A stretch of 48,410 nt of DNA from a virus (IMGVR_UViG_2531839667_000010:1-48410), one strand, 5' to 3'. Shown: positions 1,667 through 42,265, counted from the first letter of the stretch. Translations and numbers: made by a program. Notes: generated by a model from the sequence alone, not told the origin.

Positions 1667-2764
1667 ATGGCGTACTATAACATAGAGAAACGACTAAAAT
1701 CCGATGGCACACCACGCTATCGCTGTAATGTGATTATCAAAGAAAAAGGTGTTATCACTTACAGGGAAAGCAAAACATTCCCTAAACATGCTCATGCCAA
1801 AACATGGGGCACACAGAAAGTGATGGAATTAGATCTATATGGCATTCCATCATCAAATGCAGTTGACGGACTTACAGTCCGTGACTTACTACACAAATAT
1901 TTAAATGACCCAAATGCCGGAGGTAAAGCAGGCCGTACTAAAAGATATGTGCTGGAACTGCTTATGGATAGTGACATCTCCGCGATCAAACTATCTGAAC
2001 TGACAGAAAATGACGTAATTGAACATTGCAGGCTAAGAAACAACGCTGGTGCAGGTCCAGCTACAGTTAGCCACGATGTTAGTTATCTTGGCAGTGTTCT
2101 GGATGCTGCCAAACCTGTATATGGAATTAATTACACATCAAACCCAGCAAAAGCCGCTCGTCCATATCTACTTAAACTTGGTTTAATTGGTAAATCAAAC
2201 CGTCGTAATCGTAGACCAGCATCTGATGAACTGGACATGCTCATTGAAGGCCTTCAACAACGATCTACTCATAAATGCTCAAAAATTCCGTTCGTTGATA
2301 TCCTCAAATTTTCTGTGTGGTCCTGTATGCGAATCGGAGAAGTATGCCGGTTACGATGGGAAGATCTCGACCAGGAACAAAAATCTATACTCGTAAGAGA
2401 CAGGAAAGATCCACGCAAAAAGGAAGGCAACCACATGAAAGTAGCCTTGCTTGGGGAAGCCTGGGATATCGTCCAACGACAGCCCCAAAAATCGGAATTC
2501 ATTTTTCCATATAACAGCACTTCTGTTACTGCGGGATTTCAGAGGGTAAGAAGCAAATTAGGTATTAAGGATCTGCGATACCATGATTTGCGTAGAGAAG
2601 GGGCAAGTCGCTTATTTGAGGCTGGTTTTAGTATTGAGGAAGTAGCCCAGGTTACAGGGCATCGTTCATTAAACGTGCTATGGCAGGTATATACCGAACT
2701 GTATCCAAAATCTTTACATAATCGTTTTGAAGAGCTCCAAAGGAGCAGAAATAAGATCTCTTGA
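1667..2764 (+). CDS. int: Tyrosine-type phage integrase (dusA-associated arrangement)
   Basis: 365 aa; C-terminal catalytic region with LRYHDLRREGASRL (H-x-x-R) and GHRSLNVLWQVYTEL (Tyr nucleophile); divergent from and immediately beside the dusA 5' end. Confidence 0.9.
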   Translation: MAYYNIEKRLKSDGTPRYRCNVIIKEKGVITYRESKTFPKHAHAKTWGTQKVMELDLYGIPSSNAVDGLTVRDLLHKYLNDPNAGGKAGRTKRYVLELLMDSDISAIKLSELTENDVIEHCRLRNNAGAGPATVSHDVSYLGSVLDAAKPVYGINYTSNPAKAARPYLLKLGLIGKSNRRNRRPASDELDMLIEGLQQRSTHKCSKIPFVDILKFSVWSCMRIGEVCRLRWEDLDQEQKSILVRDRKDPRKKEGNHMKVALLGEAWDIVQRQPQKSEFIFPYNSTSVTAGFQRVRSKLGIKDLRYHDLRREGASRLFEAGFSIEEVAQVTGHRSLNVLWQVYTELYPKSLHNRFEELQRSRNKIS

Positions 2765-2812
2765 CACTGTTTATCCATACAGTTAAAAATAATACTGTAT
2801 ACAAACACAGTA
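2761..2812 (+). promoter_or_regulatory. SOS-regulated promoter with two LexA boxes
   Basis: TTGACA at 2761-2766 with TAAAAT about 17 nt downstream; two CTGT-N8-ACAG motifs (ctgtttatccatacag 2767-2782, ctgtatacaaacacag 2795-2810); AGAGGGA Shine-Dalgarno before the ATG at 2826. Confidence 0.6.
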
Positions 2813-2825
2813 TAGAGGGACTTTT

Positions 2826-3044
2826 ATGCGTATTGAAATCTGCATAGCCAAAGAAAAAATGACTAAAATGCCAACCGGTGCTGTGGATGCGTTAAAGGAA
2901 GAATTAACCCGACGCATCAGTAAACGTTATGACGATGTAGAGGTGATCGTAAAAGCCACCAGCAACGATGGCCTTTCTGTTACACGCACCGCAGATAAGG
3001 ATTCTGCAAAAACTTTTGGGGTATTCGGGATAAGTAGTTGTTGA
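2826..3044 (+). pseudogene. dinI: DinI-like protein, 5' portion, interrupted by an IS after codon 64
   Basis: [31 protein letters not shown] resembles the DinI N-terminus as I recall it; the frame runs into IS sequence at 3019 and ends with unrelated residues. Confidence 0.7.
3011..3018. repeat. Target-site duplication (left copy), AACTTTTG
   Basis: Identical 8-mer directly flanks the IS at 5679-5686. Confidence 0.65.
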
Positions 3045-3095
3045 AAACCTTTTGATAAGATCTGCAATTCATTTTTATAGACGGTGAAAGTTGTT

Positions 3096-3123
3096 GTTGA
3101 CCTCCTGATCGGATTCCTATACT
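3096..3123 (+). promoter_or_regulatory. Putative sigma-70 promoter inside the IS
   Basis: GTTGAC(C) then TATACT; spacer 15-16 nt, so sub-optimal. About 250 nt upstream of the ORF6N gene. Confidence 0.3.
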
Positions 3124-3369
3124 GTTTGTCTCACGAGGCGTAGAAACCTCTCCAAAAGCGGTCCGAACCAACCCCGATAGTGTTGGATTTTTTATGCCTG
3201 TTATTCAGTGATTGCACTGTATGCGGTCACACCCCGATCAATGTCGGGAGGGCGACGAATACAACACCCAGCGATGGGGAATAAGTTCGCGGTATCTTTT
3301 GGGCCGTTTCTAACCTCCCGACACCCACTTATGTGGATTTCCGTAGAAAGAAACCAAAAGAGGTCAGTC

Positions 3370-4262
3370 ATGACTAACCATTCTCCAGTAGAAAGCCTGC
3401 CAGTTGTTACCTATAACAGCCTCCCGGTGATCACCACCGAACTGCTGGCAAAACTCTACAATACCGAACCCAAATACATTCAAACCAACACGGCGCGTAA
3501 TGAATCACGTTTCGTTGCTGGAAAGCACTTCTTTAAACTGGAAGGCACTGAATAAAAGACTTTAAGAACAGACCATCTTCAAGAGGGTTAGTTGGTTCTC
3601 GCGCTCGTAGCCTTGTTCTCTGGACGGAGCGCGGTGCCGCTCGCCACGCCAAAATGCTCGAAACCGATCAGGCGTGGGAAGTGTTCGAAAAGCTGGAAGA
3701 CTTCTATTTTAGCCAGAAGGAAAAGGCCGAGCAGATTCGTAAGAATCGCCAGTGTACAGCTACCCAGCTTATCCCGCTGCGCCAAACGGCAGAACGGTTA
3801 ATCACGACAGGCCTCGGCAAAATCTATCCCGACATATGGAAGCTGGTTCATCAGCGCTTCGATGTTGAGCATATCCACCAGTTGCAGCCTGAGCAGGTCG
3901 GTGAAGCCATCGAGTATCTGAACGTGCTGGAAGGTGAGTACCTGGGGCGCGAGACGCTTCCGGCAACCCCATCAGTGCATTTCACCAACGAGGAGCTTTG
4001 CGCTCTCTGCTGGGTATGGAATGCCGCCGAATACATGCGGGAGAAGATAGAGCTGGCCTATCCCGCAATGAAAACTCTCAAGTCTGAATACGCACCGAGC
4101 TTCTACTCAATGGCATTTGAGTATCAGCGAACACTGGAAGCCGGTAGAAAGGTTCTCGAACGGGAAACAAAACACATCGTTCCGCATCCTCACAGCGTGT
4201 CAGATGAAAACTGGCGGCGAGTCCTGCCTCGTCTGCGCCAAAATAGCTTACCTCGCGGATAA
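3370..4262 (+). pseudogene. ORF6N-domain (antirepressor-type) protein gene with a frameshift near 3550
   Basis: N-terminal frame (ATG 3370, GAGG Shine-Dalgarno) ends FFKLEGTE at TAA 3553-3555; a second frame continues ...SLVLWTERGAARHAKMLETDQAWEVFEKLEDFYF to 4262, matching my recollection of the ORF6N family; consistent with loss of one T at ctgaa-t-aaaag. Confidence 0.55.
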
Positions 4263-4276
4263 TAAGGGACAAAACG

Positions 4277-5599
4277 ATGAGCGAGATTGCACCAACGAGC
4301 CTGTTACACCCTCTGAAAGCTACCGTTCTGGATTTTCAGGAGGATGAGCACGACTATCAGTTCAAGGTTGAATACCCGGAGCCGACCTGCTGCCATGCCT
4401 GCGGTGCAGTGTCTGACATCATCCGCTTTAACAAAAAGCTGGTGAAGTACCGGGATGTTCCCATGCACGGGAAGCGCGTCACGCTCTGGGTCGTAACACG
4501 CCGTTATCAGTGCAAATCATGCAAAGGCACATTCACCCCGGCCATCCCCGAGATGGCCGAAGCCCACCGCATGACAAAGCGCTGCTATCAGTACATCATT
4601 AAACGTGCGCTGACCGGCACTAACGCCAGCGTCGCGCAAGATGTTGGCTTTGATGAGTCCGTCACCCGTGGGGTCATCAAGTCCTACTGCGAGCAAAAGG
4701 CGAAGACCTATAAGCCTGTGCTGCCGCGAGTGCTGGGCATTGATGAGCTGTACCTGAACAAAACCTTCCGCTGTGTCCTGACCAACATCGAGCAGGGAAC
4801 CATTATTGACATACTGGAATCCCGGCAAAGTAACGTCATCTACAACCGTCTGGCGCATATGGAAGGCCGTGAGAACGTGCAGATCGTCTGTCAGGATATG
4901 TGGAAGCCATACCGTGACGTTGCCAGCCAGCTATTCCCTAAAGCCAGCATCGTCGTTGACCGCTTCCATATCCAGCGCATGGCTAACGAGGCGATGGAAA
5001 TGCTGCGTAAGTCGCTCAAAAAGGATCTGACAGTACACCACCGACGGCAGCTTAAAGGCGACCGTAAGATGATGTTGATGCGTAAGCGTGACCTTAACCC
5101 TATGCAGCAGATGATTATCGAAACGTGGCTGGATCACTATCCTGAGTTGGGTCTGGCCTATCAGCTCAAGGAAGAGTTCTTTGATATCTGGCTGGCACAG
5201 ACTGAACCTGAGGCCAGAATGCGCTATCAGAACTGGCTGGCAAAGATACCCGAGCATCATAAAAAGCACTGGAAGCCGCTGATAACATCCATGACGAACT
5301 GGGAGAAAGAGATATTCGCCTACTTCGGCCCGGCCCAGCGGAAGACCAACGCCTTTACGGAATCCATCAACCGCAAGATGCGCGATCTGAACCGTGATTC
5401 GCGCGGAATGTCCTTTGAGATGTTCAGGGCTAAAACACTGTTCACTCTCAAGCATAAGTTCAGCAAGCCTAAACCAGTGAAAGAATCACCGTTCACGGTT
5501 GGCTATGTCACCGCTGGTTCGTGGGATCTGGATGATGAAATCCGGGACGATTACGGCGTATCTATCGACGCTATTCTGGAATCCAAAATCGGCGAATAA
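4277..5599 (+). CDS. ISL3-family transposase
   Basis: 440 aa; N-terminal zinc-finger/HTH pattern (CCHACG ... [10 protein letters not shown]) typical of ISL3 transposases; sits between ISL3-like terminal repeats with an 8-bp duplication. Confidence 0.75.
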
Positions 5600-37864: not shown

Positions 37865-38358
37865 TAAGCCCCCACGTAATTCCCTGAGAGATACCACTCT
37901 TCACCTGATGCAGCCCGCTTACTGCTTTTCCGTAAACACCGTTCACGACGCGCCAGAAAATTGTTTCGTTCTGGCTGGGAGTGGCTTTCACGGAATGCCG
38001 CCATCCACACCGTTGCAGCACGACGGTATAAGCCCCTCGACTCCAGTTCTTCCGCCTGGCGGGTCAGGCACAAAATCACCCGCGGGTCGTTAGTGCCGAC
38101 ATAGAAATTGCGCACAGGTCTGGTTTCACGAACTGGTTGTGGTTCCGGATCCTGCGCTCTCTCAGTCAGGCGCTGGAAATGTCTGTGTGTATCTCCTTCA
38201 CAACGGTGAGCCACACGCCCACTCTGACGTAACTTGCTTGCTGACTGCAGAACGCGCTGCCGTGAGTAACCTGCAAAAGCATCCGCAATGTCTCCGGAAG
38301 TACACCCCGGATGGGCTTCAATGAATTTCTGAACTTCATTCAAAAGACTCATGATCAC
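37864..38358 (-). CDS. Hypothetical regulator (PerC/ANR-like C-terminal region)
   Basis: 164 aa; motif ...LESRGLYRRAATVWMAAF... resembles PerC/ANR regulators as I recall; coupled to the O-like gene (ATGA overlap). Confidence 0.4.
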   Translation of the reverse strand: MIMSLLNEVQKFIEAHPGCTSGDIADAFAGYSRQRVLQSASKLRQSGRVAHRCEGDTHRHFQRLTERAQDPEPQPVRETRPVRNFYVGTNDPRVILCLTRQAEELESRGLYRRAATVWMAAFRESHSQPERNNFLARRERCLRKSSKRAASGEEWYLSGNYVGA

Positions 38359-39347
38359 CCCCTGAATCCTGCCGGGATCTGGCTGTAGTCCACATTGTCG
38401 TAACTGGCTTTGAAGTACGGGTCTTCGCGTTTTTCTGTGTACGTGCTGACGGACGGCGATAAGCGCAGGGAAAGCTCATCCCATTTTTCCCGCAGCTTCG
38501 ACGGGCTGAGCACGTTACGGCACCAGAACGGATCGCGGCTGACGCGGCTGTACATCTCGCAGATTTGTTTGTGAGTACGCCCATCCTGTACACACATCAG
38601 GCGAATTTCGTTTGCCCAGGCTGTCCAGTTCGGTTCTTTAGGACGTACCACTTCGCCGTCACATTCGGCGGCCTGCTCGTACAGAGCGATGATTTTTTTC
38701 CAGAGCCACTGTGCGCAGGTCAAATCATCCTGCGTTCCCCACTGGCGCTTTTTAGGGCTGAATACAACCGCATCAGGATGGCGAGTTAAAAAATCCTGTT
38801 CAGCCATCTGCGTGTCCGGTTGCGAAGCGTCCGGACGAGAAGAGGTTTTATTCTCTGTAGTAATCTCTGTTGTATTCTCTGTAAGATCATTGGGCCATTT
38901 TGACCCGATGACAGCGTGTCGTTTTGAACCAATGGATCGTGTCATTTTGCGCTCATCCATCAGGTCACTTTGACCCGATGGAGAGGTGCATTTTGACCTG
39001 ATGGATTCGTTCACTTTGACCTCTTCTAAAAGCTCACTTTCATAGTTGATCGTGTAGAAGTTGGTCATGTCACGCTTCGATTTATTGAGTTGCTCGCGAC
39101 GCAAAACCCCAAGTGATTTCAGGCTTGCAAATGTGCGTTTCAGAGTGGACTCTGACCAGAACGGAAACTGCTCCAGCCACTGTTCTGTCGTGTTATAAAC
39201 CCAGCGAATTCCGCCATGCTCAGTGCCTGAATTCGTTTCATTCAGCCAGTAATGAAGCTGCTGCAACACAATTGCCTCATTCAGACCAATACGGCATGCA
39301 AGATCACGATTTATCACAATGGGCTGGGATGTCATTAACAGGCTCAT
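38355..39347 (-). CDS. Replication initiator (lambda O-like) containing the origin iterons
   Basis: 330 aa with wHTH-like N-terminus; the gene body carries six 23-bp-spaced iterons, as lambda ori lies within O. Confidence 0.7.
   Translation of the reverse strand: MSLLMTSQPIVINRDLACRIGLNEAIVLQQLHYWLNETNSGTEHGGIRWVYNTTEQWLEQFPFWSESTLKRTFASLKSLGVLRREQLNKSKRDMTNFYTINYESELLEEVKVNESIRSKCTSPSGQSDLMDERKMTRSIGSKRHAVIGSKWPNDLTENTTEITTENKTSSRPDASQPDTQMAEQDFLTRHPDAVVFSPKKRQWGTQDDLTCAQWLWKKIIALYEQAAECDGEVVRPKEPNWTAWANEIRLMCVQDGRTHKQICEMYSRVSRDPFWCRNVLSPSKLREKWDELSLRLSPSVSTYTEKREDPYFKASYDNVDYSQIPAGFRG
38893..39030. repeat. Origin of replication iterons
   Basis: Six copies of about YTTTGACCYGATGGA starting at 38899, 38922, 38945, 38968, 38991, 39014 (constant 23-bp phase), followed by a moderately AT-rich stretch. 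Confidence 0.65.
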
Positions 39348-39568
39348 GCCGCACCTCCGAGATGCTTCATGTTTTTTCCGGAGCGAAAGGCTATAAGCGG
39401 CATACTGACGCGGTAATTACGGCCCAGCGGTTCACAAATCACCTTCTGGCATTCACGGTCAACCAGGCTAACACGTAGAACATGCCCTGCAGGCGTGGTG
39501 TACCACTGACCGGGGCGAGGACAACGGAAAGTCTGATTGGTAAATCGTTTGAAAATATTCCGGATCAT
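39344..39568 (-). CDS. Hypothetical small protein
   Basis: 74 aa; ATGA overlaps with both neighbours. Confidence 0.45.
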   Translation of the reverse strand: MIRNIFKRFTNQTFRCPRPGQWYTTPAGHVLRVSLVDRECQKVICEPLGRNYRVSMPLIAFRSGKNMKHLGGAA

Positions 39569-40725
39569 TTGCGCCCCCTTACCTCTGAAGAGTTCAGCGA
39601 CGAATGAATAAGACGGGCAAGAAATGCCGCATCGTTAATTCGGTCATACAGACTTACAGCCAGCGGTGATTCAGCTTTTTCCAGCATGGGATAAAGCTGC
39701 TGCAACCAGACCTGATGAATTGATGAAATGTAGGAATAGAGAACGCTGGCGTTATGTGCAACGTCGCTCAGTACAGAGGGATTTGAAAGCTGTTTCTCCA
39801 TCTGGTTAAAGGCATTGATGTATGCCTCTTTGAACCGGGCAGCACGTTTACCAGTGAAGCCCATAGCAAGGAACGCGAAGCCATCGCGGGTTATTTGATA
39901 GCAAGGTAGTTTGCGAGTACCGCCGTTGGGCTGGCGTACCAAAATTGATGTCTCCGCAAAATTGCGGGCACAAAACTCTGGAGAACAATCCAAAATGCGA
40001 ATCTTTTTCAGAACATCGTCATGACGTTTAGAGAAGAAGTCAGCAACAGCCAAAGAAGATGTAACAGCCTGACCATCAACGATGGCAATTTCAGGTTGAG
40101 AGAGGGTTGGGACAGTAGCCATGATGGCAGCCTCCGTATGCAATGGATAACTTCCACCACCGGAAACGCCAATTTCGCTGGTGGTGAACTGAGCAGGGTT
40201 GGCGTAACCGGCGCATACGGAAACCGGCGCACCTTTCGGTGCCCCCACCCAGCCCACCATAATTTGGGTATAGCTGAGTTGTAGCAACAAAAAAGACGCT
40301 AACGCGCCAATTGTCGCCGTATGCAATTCCAGGACGCCAATCCCGGCACCCGCTTTATAAGGTGCCTGAACAGTGTAACGTCCCGGAATGGCAGAATCAA
40401 TGTGCTGGTGGTCCTTCACACTCAACAAAATCACGCCTGAATTTCCACAAAGGACTAAAGCACTCATGCGGGTAGTCTTTGCGAAGATAGATAACGCGCT
40501 GTGTTTCTGGCTCCCAACGAATAACATGGACATAAAGCCCTCTTCCGTCACGAAACCAGCGGTTAAGTTCCTGCACAACTCGCCCCCCACAGTCAGGTAA
40601 AGTTCTCTGTGGTTACTTACAGCCAGGTGATTTGGTAATCTGCATTCATGCCGTAACAACAGGTGTTCAGCGACGCTGACCACCAGCTGTTGCGACAAAC
40701 GGTTATTTGCCGTTAAACTGTTCAT
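39565..40725 (-). CDS. Rha-domain phage regulatory protein (start uncertain)
   Basis: Rha-type domain (...IVDGQAVTSSLAVADFFSKRHDDVLKKI...) in residues about 205-300. The longest ORF starts at 40725, coupled to the upstream stop; an internal ATG at 40121-40123 with a GGAGG Shine-Dalgarno would give a 186-aa Rha protein. Confidence 0.55.
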   Translation of the reverse strand: MNSLTANNRLSQQLVVSVAEHLLLRHECRLPNHLAVSNHRELYLTVGGELCRNLTAGFVTEEGFMSMLFVGSQKHSALSIFAKTTRMSALVLCGNSGVILLSVKDHQHIDSAIPGRYTVQAPYKAGAGIGVLELHTATIGALASFLLLQLSYTQIMVGWVGAPKGAPVSVCAGYANPAQFTTSEIGVSGGGSYPLHTEAAIMATVPTLSQPEIAIVDGQAVTSSLAVADFFSKRHDDVLKKIRILDCSPEFCARNFAETSILVRQPNGGTRKLPCYQITRDGFAFLAMGFTGKRAARFKEAYINAFNQMEKQLSNPSVLSDVAHNASVLYSYISSIHQVWLQQLYPMLEKAESPLAVSLYDRINDAAFLARLIHSSLNSSEVRGRK

Positions 40726-41291
40726 GCGTTAGTTTCTCCACAACCAGAAGCAATCGACGCCACGACGCCCGGAGCTGCACACTCGCGGGCGTTACTCTTT
40801 TCCGGCGCACAAAAAACACGAAATAACAGTGTTAAATGCTCCTGCCACTTCGCCATTACTTGGTAGCTGTTCTCTTCGATTTGCTCACGCTCAGCCTGGT
40901 CAATAACTCCATCAGCAGTTGCCTTGCGTAAGTACTGGGAATGCTTGCCAATCCATTCTATTGACTCCATCAGCCGCTGATTAATGTCACCAATGACCAC
41001 CAGCGGCACAAACACCCCATTACTACGACGGGCTATTGCATCTGTTACATGCCTGGTACCACTGGCATCCTGTAAAACCATGGCCCACTCAAGTGGAAAA
41101 ATTTGATCCCCACCGCTACGCAGTCTGTTATGCAATTGATCTTTTGCTGGGGTGATATCATCAGATTTATACAAACCAAGAATTTCTGCTGCTTCCTCAT
41201 AGCCATGAGGTAAATCAGCAATCGTTCTTCGTATTGCTGCCACCAGCCATGCTGGTTGTTTATCAACTTTCCATTCAGGTTCTTTACCCAC
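40722..41291 (-). CDS. Putative CII-like early regulator
   Basis: 189-aa ORF immediately after cro in the rightward operon; family assignment is positional and from a weak recollection of the CP76-type CII family. Confidence 0.4.
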   Translation of the reverse strand: MGKEPEWKVDKQPAWLVAAIRRTIADLPHGYEEAAEILGLYKSDDITPAKDQLHNRLRSGGDQIFPLEWAMVLQDASGTRHVTDAIARRSNGVFVPLVVIGDINQRLMESIEWIGKHSQYLRKATADGVIDQAEREQIEENSYQVMAKWQEHLTLLFRVFCAPEKSNARECAAPGVVASIASGCGETNA

Positions 41292-41516: not shown

Positions 41517-41548
41517 TTCTGTCTCCCGTTAAATTACGTTAAGCAGAA

Positions 41549-41611
41549 ATGTAGGATATCCAACATACCAATGTCAAGAATCCTACATGGGCATGTGGTA
41601 GGATTGCCTAC
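41549..41611. promoter_or_regulatory. OR operator cluster with divergent pR/pRM
   Basis: 18-bp palindrome ATGTAGGATATCCAACAT (41549-41566) plus degenerate copies at 41571-41588 and 41593-41610. Confidence 0.6.
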
Positions 41612-42265
41612 ATGATGAACATGAGTGATCGTATTCGCCAAAGGCGAAAAGAACTGAACCTGACACAACAAGCACTGGCTGATTTGACTGGTGTGAACCG
41701 TGTCACGGTTACTGGATGGGAAAAGGACGACTACCAACCAAATGGAGCCAACCTTCAAGCCCTAGCCAACGCACTTAAATGCGATCCTCTGTGGCTTGTT
41801 AGCGGAAAAGGCTCGCCTGAACCAAAGATAAATCTAAAACCTGAAATATTCGCAGTTAAAAAAGTCCCCCTCATCTCGTGGGTTCAGGCGGGTTCATGGA
41901 CAATGACGGAGCCTGGTGTCAGGAAAGAAGATGCTGAAGAGTGGGTTTATACTACCGCCATTGTATCAGAAATGGCATTTGCACTACGGGTCCGTGGTGA
42001 TTCAATGACCAATCCCCTCGGCTCACCATCGATACCAGAAGGTTCTATCGTTATCGTAGAGCCAGATATTATTGATACAGAGTGTATTAACGGAAAAATC
42101 GTTGTTGCCCATATCAATGGTGGGCAAGAAGCGACACTCAAAAAATTTGTTGAGGACTGGCCGAACAGGTATCTCGTCCCACTAAATCCTAACTATAAAA
42201 CTATTGAATGCGGTGAGAACTGCAGAATAGTTGGTCTTGTCAAACAAGTAATAATGGATTTTTGA
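41612..42265 (+). CDS. cI: CI-type prophage repressor (HTH plus S24 LexA-like autopeptidase)
   Basis: 217 aa; N-terminal HTH (LTQQALADLTGV), C-terminal RVRGDSM Ser nucleophile and downstream Lys. Confidence 0.9.
   Translation: MMNMSDRIRQRRKELNLTQQALADLTGVNRVTVTGWEKDDYQPNGANLQALANALKCDPLWLVSGKGSPEPKINLKPEIFAVKKVPLISWVQAGSWTMTEPGVRKEDAEEWVYTTAIVSEMAFALRVRGDSMTNPLGSPSIPEGSIVIVEPDIIDTECINGKIVVAHINGGQEATLKKFVEDWPNRYLVPLNPNYKTIECGENCRIVGLVKQVIMDF

Follow-up and report, generated by a model that had tools for sequence, protein, structure and literature searches.

The window considered here is the whole 48,410-nucleotide (nt) stretch of viral DNA IMGVR_UViG_2531839667_000010, and the locus under study is the Rha-family module on its minus strand. 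The longest open reading frame (ORF) there had been described, in a first-pass annotation, as a Rha-domain gene with an unexplained 200-codon N-terminal extension. In the order of transcription, a pR-like promoter is followed by cro, a cII-like gene, the RNA cassette described below, Rha, a small ORF and an O-like gene. Between the cII-like stop and Rha lie, successively, a 149-nt stretch, a DUF4222 gene, a promoter-like site, an IsrK-like leader RNA with its terminator, a C4 RNA, and the b2 and a2 sites. Codons 1-201 of the long ORF run past the DUF4222 gene (out of frame), the promoter-like site, both RNAs and their targets, after which the frame continues in frame into Rha. As already noticed in the first pass, its ATG (40725-40723) overlaps the upstream stop (TGA, 40724-40722), the junction reading ATGA. 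In-frame ATGs are found at 40725, 40260 and 40122.

The Rha domain is limited to the C-terminal half of this ORF, as first proposed: Pfam Phage_pRha (PF09669) matches residues 222-311 only of the 386 (E 1e-26, 93.6 bits, curated cut-off 29.9). The internal ATG preceded by a GGAGG Shine-Dalgarno (40135-40131) was found as well, albeit at 40122-40120 and not at 40121-40123. Four lines of evidence from sequence comparison say that this ATG is the start of the Rha gene proper. First, in many loci the homology to the window starts at the Rha ATG or 12-16 nt before it, so that the mosaic boundary is the Shine-Dalgarno/ATG itself. Second, an extension identical to that of the window joins an unrelated 77-aa tail five codons past the ATG, in 278-aa 'ash family' proteins of the SfV orf37 type. 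Third, homologues from Citrobacter, Edwardsiella, Serratia, Pantoea and other genera align from residue 1 of the 185-aa protein. Finally, the excess of synonymous changes sets in at ATG 40122.

The 600 bp upstream had been taken for low-information sequence on both strands. This did not stand, as a DUF4222 gene, a match to Pfam Phage_ASH and Rfam matches to C4 and isrK were all found there. The IsrK-like leader is made of two hairpins, with a site b1 (TTGGCGT, 40340-40334) in the loop of hairpin 2 and a site a1 (GCATACGG, 40324-40317), and contains an intrinsic terminator (40308-40295, followed by a U-tract). In the C4 RNA, the a' loop occupies 40223-40212 (CCGTATGC at 40220-40213) and the b' linker, ACGCCAA, 40205-40199; the in-frame ATG at 40260-40258 lies within this RNA. 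Downstream, the a2 site covers the Rha Shine-Dalgarno. Upstream, a candidate sigma-70 promoter is spaced for a start at G 40365, which is the 5' end of the Rfam isrK match. It is kept in 58 of 58 relatives, including those with unrelated upstream DNA, and a single nucleotide out of 31 differs from ST64B over 40366-40396.

Eighty related loci from viral contigs, together with annotated phages, were compared. The 300 nt located 5' of the Rha ATG sort into several types. The C4 fold has a long closing stem, two hairpins and a single-stranded linker. All of its 27 pairs were kept in all ten variants (P4 CI included), and 11 of the 27 displayed compensatory double-sided changes, a result matched by none of 500 shuffles. 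In the IsrK hairpins, 5 pairs were changed on both sides; the terminator has two registers and is inconsistently aligned across variants. In each type, the 12-nt a' loop of C4 is complementary to a1 in the leader and to a2, which ends in the Shine-Dalgarno, and the b' linker matches both the loop of IsrK hairpin 2 (b1) and the post-C4 site b2. This three-way covariation was observed in at least seven types for a1/a'/a2, and at least four for b1/b'/b2. The a'-a2 duplex of the window is 13 bp long with a predicted energy of -20.5 kcal/mol, compared to -6 to -12 kcal/mol for non-cognate types, and in the cross-type matrix the cognate a'-a2 duplex was the strongest in every row. In the predicted fold of the full leader, a' pairs with a2 and b' with b2 in cis (z = -4.5). 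The best explanation for the region as a whole, which we consider likely, is an antisense-RNA immunity cassette of the P4/P1 type, carried by a lambdoid prophage within its early rightward operon. Table 1 gives the coordinates of all features.

Table 1. Features of the Rha locus and of a second, integrase-bearing element of the window.
Feature	Position	Strand	Description
Long 'eta-like' ORF	39565..40725	-	386 codons (386 aa), longest ORF
Rha-family gene proper	39565..40122	-	185 aa; ATG 40122-40120; GGAGG 8 nt upstream
C4 target region on Rha mRNA	40130..40172	-	b2 TTGGCGT (40172-40166); a2 TGCATACGGAGGC (40142-40130)
C4/P4 CI-type antisense RNA	40177..40264	-	Rfam RF01695, 80.7 bits (gathering 45), full length
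IsrK/P4 seqA-like leader RNA	40289..40365	-	Rfam RF01394, 61.2 bits (gathering 50), full length
Candidate internal sigma-70 promoter	40372..40400	-	TTGATT (40400-40395), 17-nt spacer, TACACT (40377-40372)
DUF4222 gene	40397..40576	-	59 aa, GTG start, frame different from the long ORF
cII/YmfL-like gene	40722..41291	-	Phage_CP76; phrog_101, CII-like; TGA overlaps the long-ORF ATG
pR-like early promoter	41548..41577	-	TTGACA-18-TACATT, upstream of cro
Divergent cI-like gene	41612-42265	+	ORF call
Small downstream ORF	39344..39568	-	74 aa, phrog_1153, weakly DUF4222-like; ATG overlaps the Rha stop
O-like replication gene	38355-39347	-	next after the 74-aa ORF
Integrase	1667-2764	+	part of the second element
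sRNA-Xcc1	3243-3330	+	Rfam, 62.6 bits (gathering 53), no clan
Antirepressor-like gene	ATG 3370	+	broken by a stop (3553-3555) before its P22_AR_C part (3654-4262)

The cassette and Rha are followed by the 74-aa phrog_1153 ORF, translationally coupled to the Rha stop. The pR-like promoter is the presumed source of the transcripts on which the long frame would be translated.

Is the extension under selection as a protein? Changed codons were counted as synonymous (S) or non-synonymous (N) between the window and ST64B-type sequences. In the long frame, the S:N ratio was 47:30 for the Rha part, against 2:13 for isrK, 2:18 for C4 and 0:13 for the target segment. The total for the RNA cassette, from isrK to the Rha ATG, was 5:50 (p = 7e-10 against Rha), and the other two frames gave no better counts. 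Over the whole extension outside the DUF4222 gene, 14:63 was obtained. Comparison with Citrobacter braakii led to a similar picture, 9:53 for the cassette compared to 44:50 for Rha, with the first 50 codons behaving alike. The changes found in the cassette are those that preserve RNA pairs and antisense complementarity. By these counts, the extension is therefore under no amino-acid-level constraint.

The first 50 codons (40725-40577) were also considered as a possible conserved peptide, and rejected, as no frame had a clear coding constraint (S:N of 8:13 in the long frame against ST64B, and 3:14 against Citrobacter). At its very beginning, the long ORF has ~40 nt (40725-40686, minus strand, ATGAACAGTTTAACGGCAAATAACCGTTTGTCGCAACAG), with a short hairpin (AACGG...CCGTT) in them, that do not differ between the Escherichia coli window and C. 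braakii, whereas the next 100 nt diverge by ~20%. This invariant stretch may have a regulatory role or serve as a linker in recombination.

The long frame is nevertheless kept open, although no amino-acid constraint is detectable. It was open in 57 of 58 distinct related upstream sequences, over 100-233 codons and back to an ATG. Based on dinucleotide-preserving shuffles, the probability of 201 stop-free codons arising by chance is ~0.001. Over the 246-nt cassette, no stop was present in this frame in any of the 12 variant types, while the other two frames had 0-5 and 1-7 stops (about 2 and 4). All indels were multiples of 3 or compensated, as with a -1/-2 pair in locus L028. In L044, where the module is duplicated in tandem, the ATG of the second long ORF overlaps the stop codon of the first gene, and ten codons of the downstream small ORF are fused in frame at the junction. 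In L034 (1559-3058), a 499-codon frame extends from the cII-like stop to the cassette and Rha. More generally, among 13 loci of other Enterobacterales, 10 have a Rha frame that crosses the whole cassette, compared to 0 of 26 for the other two frames (p = 4e-7), and in every embedded cassette the ORF extends upstream as far as the preceding gene's stop, like P4 eta. Four stand-alone cassettes (VT2-Sakai, a Klebsiella phage, a Yersinia phage and phiv142-3), on the other hand, have stops in that frame. The frame is probably kept open so that ribosomes override the RNA switch.

Tandem cassette-plus-Rha modules with differing C4 specificities were observed in L044 (1032-3058), and also in L028, L043, L045 and L046; in these prophages, each long ORF begins at the stop of the preceding gene. 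The frame of L034 crosses a remnant of the Rha C-terminus and an inserted gene of 133 aa on the opposite strand (1829-2230).

The alternative that survives best is that only the 185-aa Rha and the RNAs are functional, the long frame being a chance ancestral ORF, frozen by RNA conservation and lengthened by gene callers. It would account for the lack of amino-acid constraint and for the contrast between the strong Shine-Dalgarno at the internal ATG and the weak one at 40725; moreover, a GC-rich stretch of 246 nt is stop-free by chance with a probability of ~0.065, and some cassettes do without an open frame. It fits poorly, however, with a frame open in 12 of 12 divergent specificity types, when the other frames carry 0-7 stops in the same variable segments. 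Nor does it predict that indels and the L044 and L034 junctions should preserve the frame, that the 10 of 13 against 0 of 26 bias should recur in other genera, or that embedded ORFs should always reach the upstream stop. We consider it unlikely.

A second alternative, close to the novel N-terminal domain first envisaged, is that the extension folds as an 'Ash' domain, forming a two-domain Ash-Rha regulator. Pfam Phage_ASH (PF10554) matches residues 117-211 of the long ORF (E 5e-17, 62.6 bits, cut-off 26), PHROG families match the extension too, and annotations of many phages include the full-length ORF. In work on Stx 'Eru' phages it is discussed as a two-domain Rha/Ash protein of unknown function, beside replication genes (PMC8951638). 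But the Phage_ASH match coincides with the isrK-C4-target segment, where no frame has a synonymous excess and where the changes preserve RNA pairs and antisense complementarity, and residues 50-110 overlap a gene constrained in another frame. In a PDB sequence search, no significant match was obtained for the extension, nor for Rha. The available homologues of the long ORF are 99-100% identical. The codon counts given above therefore make of the 'Ash domain' an RNA shadow: they indicate that the Phage_ASH profile describes the in-frame translation of a seqA/CI RNA cassette, rather than a domain selected for its amino acids. A folded Ash domain is in our view quite improbable, and a novel domain is disfavoured by the same lack of constraint. 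As for the comparison with orthologues proposed in the first pass, the full-length ORF is indeed conserved in them and matches a 'domain' named in Pfam (Ash), but this 'domain' is the translated RNA cassette.

The gene constrained in another frame is DUF4222 (Pfam PF13973, E 9.5e-14, 51.1 bits, cut-off 27; phrog_1343, E 1e-36), whose stop codon sits within the -35 hexamer of the candidate internal promoter. In this region, the S:N ratio was 13:5 in its own frame and 0:17 in the long frame. The gene is intact in 52 of the 58 relatives, and PGAP calls it in some genomes. The early suggestion of a separate small gene was thus right in kind, this gene lying on the same strand in a different frame, but not in the candidate put forward. 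The latter, a plus-strand ORF of 44 aa, does exist (it begins at about 40466, within a 70-aa ORF at 40388-40600); it is antisense to DUF4222, has no Pfam or other family match, and was rejected as a gene. The DUF4222 product (59 aa) and the phrog_1153 product (74 aa), which flank the cassette and Rha, have a weak mutual similarity (E 0.008). Finally, the view of the upstream 600 bp as a gene in decay, or as what is left of a pseudogene joined to Rha, as the low-complexity appearance of the translation and a poor single-sequence AlphaFold2 model of the 386-aa ORF (mean pLDDT 34) might suggest, is hardly credible for a highly conserved, structured region with an intact DUF4222 gene, two Rfam-level RNAs, no stops or frameshifts and a frame actively kept open, the model being uninformative because the bona fide Rha domain came out equally poor.

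Returning to the RNA immunity cassette with its open frame, a mechanism can be proposed by analogy with P4 (eta/kil, CI RNA), P1/P7 (c4-ant), N15 and Gifsy-1 (IsrK-orf45-AnrP). In the lysogen, the internal promoter would yield a short IsrK-like RNA and read-through transcripts, from which C4 would be processed out. By pairing with a2/b2 and a1/b1, C4 would block ribosome binding at the Rha start, and would favour premature termination ahead of the replication genes. Once the early promoter is on, ribosomes leaving the cII-like gene would start again at ATG 40725, which overlaps its stop, and read the long frame across the leader, the terminator, C4 and the targets. Such translation would prevent the formation of RNA structures as well as termination, rendering the operon insensitive to RNA immunity, and would yield a long Rha isoform. 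The proposed override of termination by translation is supported indirectly, by the selection for an open frame in the absence of amino-acid constraint.

Several points weigh against this scheme. We infer, from the analogies just cited, each of its functional steps, namely promoter activity, C4 processing, repression of Rha and the effect of long-frame translation, and P4 eta is described here after a secondary summary (PMC10111431). The role of Rha as an antirepressor is suggested at the level of annotation. The candidate internal promoter scores 8/12, below the scan threshold, and was not called by the promoter scan; it was kept as a candidate because of its conservation, despite this score. 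At ATG 40725, the sole GGAG is distant (10 nt), so initiation there would need coupling. Three of the 13 Enterobacterales cassettes, and all those of Marinomonas and Aeromonas, are devoid of an open frame, which means that an open frame is not obligatory for a cassette. Finally, one relative, L057, is frameshifted. Its lesion (at about 2480-2500) is a 1-nt deletion in a2/Shine-Dalgarno, from CACCAAAGAGG to CACC-AAGAGG; the prophage could be defective, or the homopolymer could have been misread in sequencing.

Parts of the 1.5-kb region have matches in 2,389 of 5,426 complete E. coli genomes, and annotation of the module is not consistent. In the two PGAP records inspected, it was annotated as a 'Rha family' protein of 387 or 296 aa. 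Elsewhere it is named 'antirepressor', and the same extension with a different tail becomes an 'ash family protein', a label carried by identical extensions in thousands of contigs. The RNAs were unannotated in all records inspected. We conclude that the extension, first termed unexplained, is largely explained: a pair of structured RNA genes, together with the sites that they target, had been missed, and what is commonly mis-annotated as a 'Rha/Ash' protein is an RNA immunity cassette of the P4/P1 type, read through by an eta-like ORF. This resolves a widespread annotation problem for the Rha/Ash module, and is of use for understanding Stx and other lambdoid phages.

If this is true, P4-type immunity with combinatorial specificities (at least seven a-types and at least four b-types) would silence the internal-promoter transcripts, whereas ribosomes coming from the early promoter and reading a sequence-unconstrained 'spacer ORF' would erase the RNA structures. 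RNA-based heteroimmunity classes are then predicted among lambdoid and Stx prophages, as well as a control point for the expression of Rha and the replication genes, and the long frame would exemplify an ORF under selection for its translation, not for its encoded product. At a wider scale, a switch between translation and antisense RNA may gate Rha and the downstream replication genes in a large lambdoid group, Stx-converting phages included; the Ash family would be defined by RNA genes, and a second, RNA-based layer of heteroimmunity would affect induction, and hence toxin production. We put forward this wider proposal, with the silencing and erasure on which it depends, tentatively, at slightly less than even chances.

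A second cassette was noticed in the integrase-bearing element of the window (1667-5599, plus strand, especially 3141-3370), where sRNA-Xcc1 precedes the broken antirepressor-like gene, itself followed by an ISL3 transposase. Hairpin 2 of sRNA-Xcc1 has CTTTTGG in its loop, and the complementary CCAAAAG occurs upstream (3152) as well as at the Shine-Dalgarno (3354, CCAAAAGAGG); sRNA-Xcc1 would therefore behave like a C4-type antisense RNA. In a Providencia locus (L102, 2367-2453) and in one from Ca. Phlomobacter (L107, 2362-2452), sRNA-Xcc1 occupies the exact C4 position 5' of Rha homologues, and the three-way complementarity is present with other sequences (CTCGTAG with CTACGAG twice, and CTATCTG with CAGATAG twice, respectively). 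A paper on APSE phages places sRNA-Xcc1 upstream of an ORF6N gene, without a C4-type interpretation, and Rfam leaves it outside the C4 clan. In Yersinia phage vB_YpM_41 (L090, 149-447), an Rfam ryfA match (134.6 bits) lies ~1 kb from an IsrK-C4 cassette.

How does the cassette compare to known systems? In the immI region of P1 and P7 (c4-icd-ant1/2) and in N15, C4 RNA controls an antirepressor: its a'/b' sites pair with a2/b2 over the ribosome-binding site, a1/b1 being located upstream, and its specificity variants lead to heteroimmunity (P1 versus P7). The window resembles these systems in having a2/b2 over a ribosome-binding site and a1/b1 upstream. In P1, the direct C4 target is the ribosome-binding site of icd, to which ant is coupled, whereas in the window it is the Shine-Dalgarno of the Rha gene itself; to our knowledge, no long ORF running through c4 has been described in P1.

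IsrK-C4 systems are found in lambdoid prophages (PMC3632133). In the Gifsy-1 isrK-orf45-anrP locus of Salmonella, the IsrK leader has a terminator, as in the window, and is transcribed from a promoter of its own, a processed RNA of ~80 nt (STnc1160) occupies the C4 position, and RNA pairing gates the translation of a downstream antirepressor-like gene (PMC4825925). The candidate internal promoter of the window is analogous to PisrK there, and to PLE of P4. The orf45 AUG has ATG 40260 as its counterpart in the window, where, unlike in Gifsy-1, no evident Shine-Dalgarno precedes it. Moreover, orf45 ends at the anrP start (AUGA) in a stand-alone locus, whereas the frame of the window is fused to Rha and reaches the cII-like gene.

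In P4, transcripts from the internal promoter terminate via CI/seqA interactions (Forti et al. 1999, summarised in PMC10111431). The same summary describes eta as coupled to the gene that precedes it and as preventing termination when translated, and places CI and seqA inside a Bro-network gene (PMC10111431). The immunity region of the satellite phage P4 (PLE, seqA, CI RNA, seqC, eta/kil) has its elements in the same order as the window, with the same Rfam matches (isrK for seqA and C4 for CI), both inside the eta ORF. As with the long ORF of the window, the eta ATG overlaps the upstream stop, the frame runs through the RNAs in frame with a short gene, and the product matches Pfam Phage_ASH. 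The kil start shares the Shine-Dalgarno-ATG context of the window (GGAGGCTGCCATCATGGCTAC), and the first ~11 codons are similar, but the short gene encodes a 65-aa Kil in P4 and a 185-aa Rha-domain protein in the window. Two other differences are the ~85 extra nt separating seqA from CI in P4, and the DUF4222 gene overlapping the long frame in the window. Finally, unlike P4, the element hosting the cassette is a lambdoid prophage with cI-, cro- and cII-like genes, in which the cassette lies between the cII-like gene and the replication genes.

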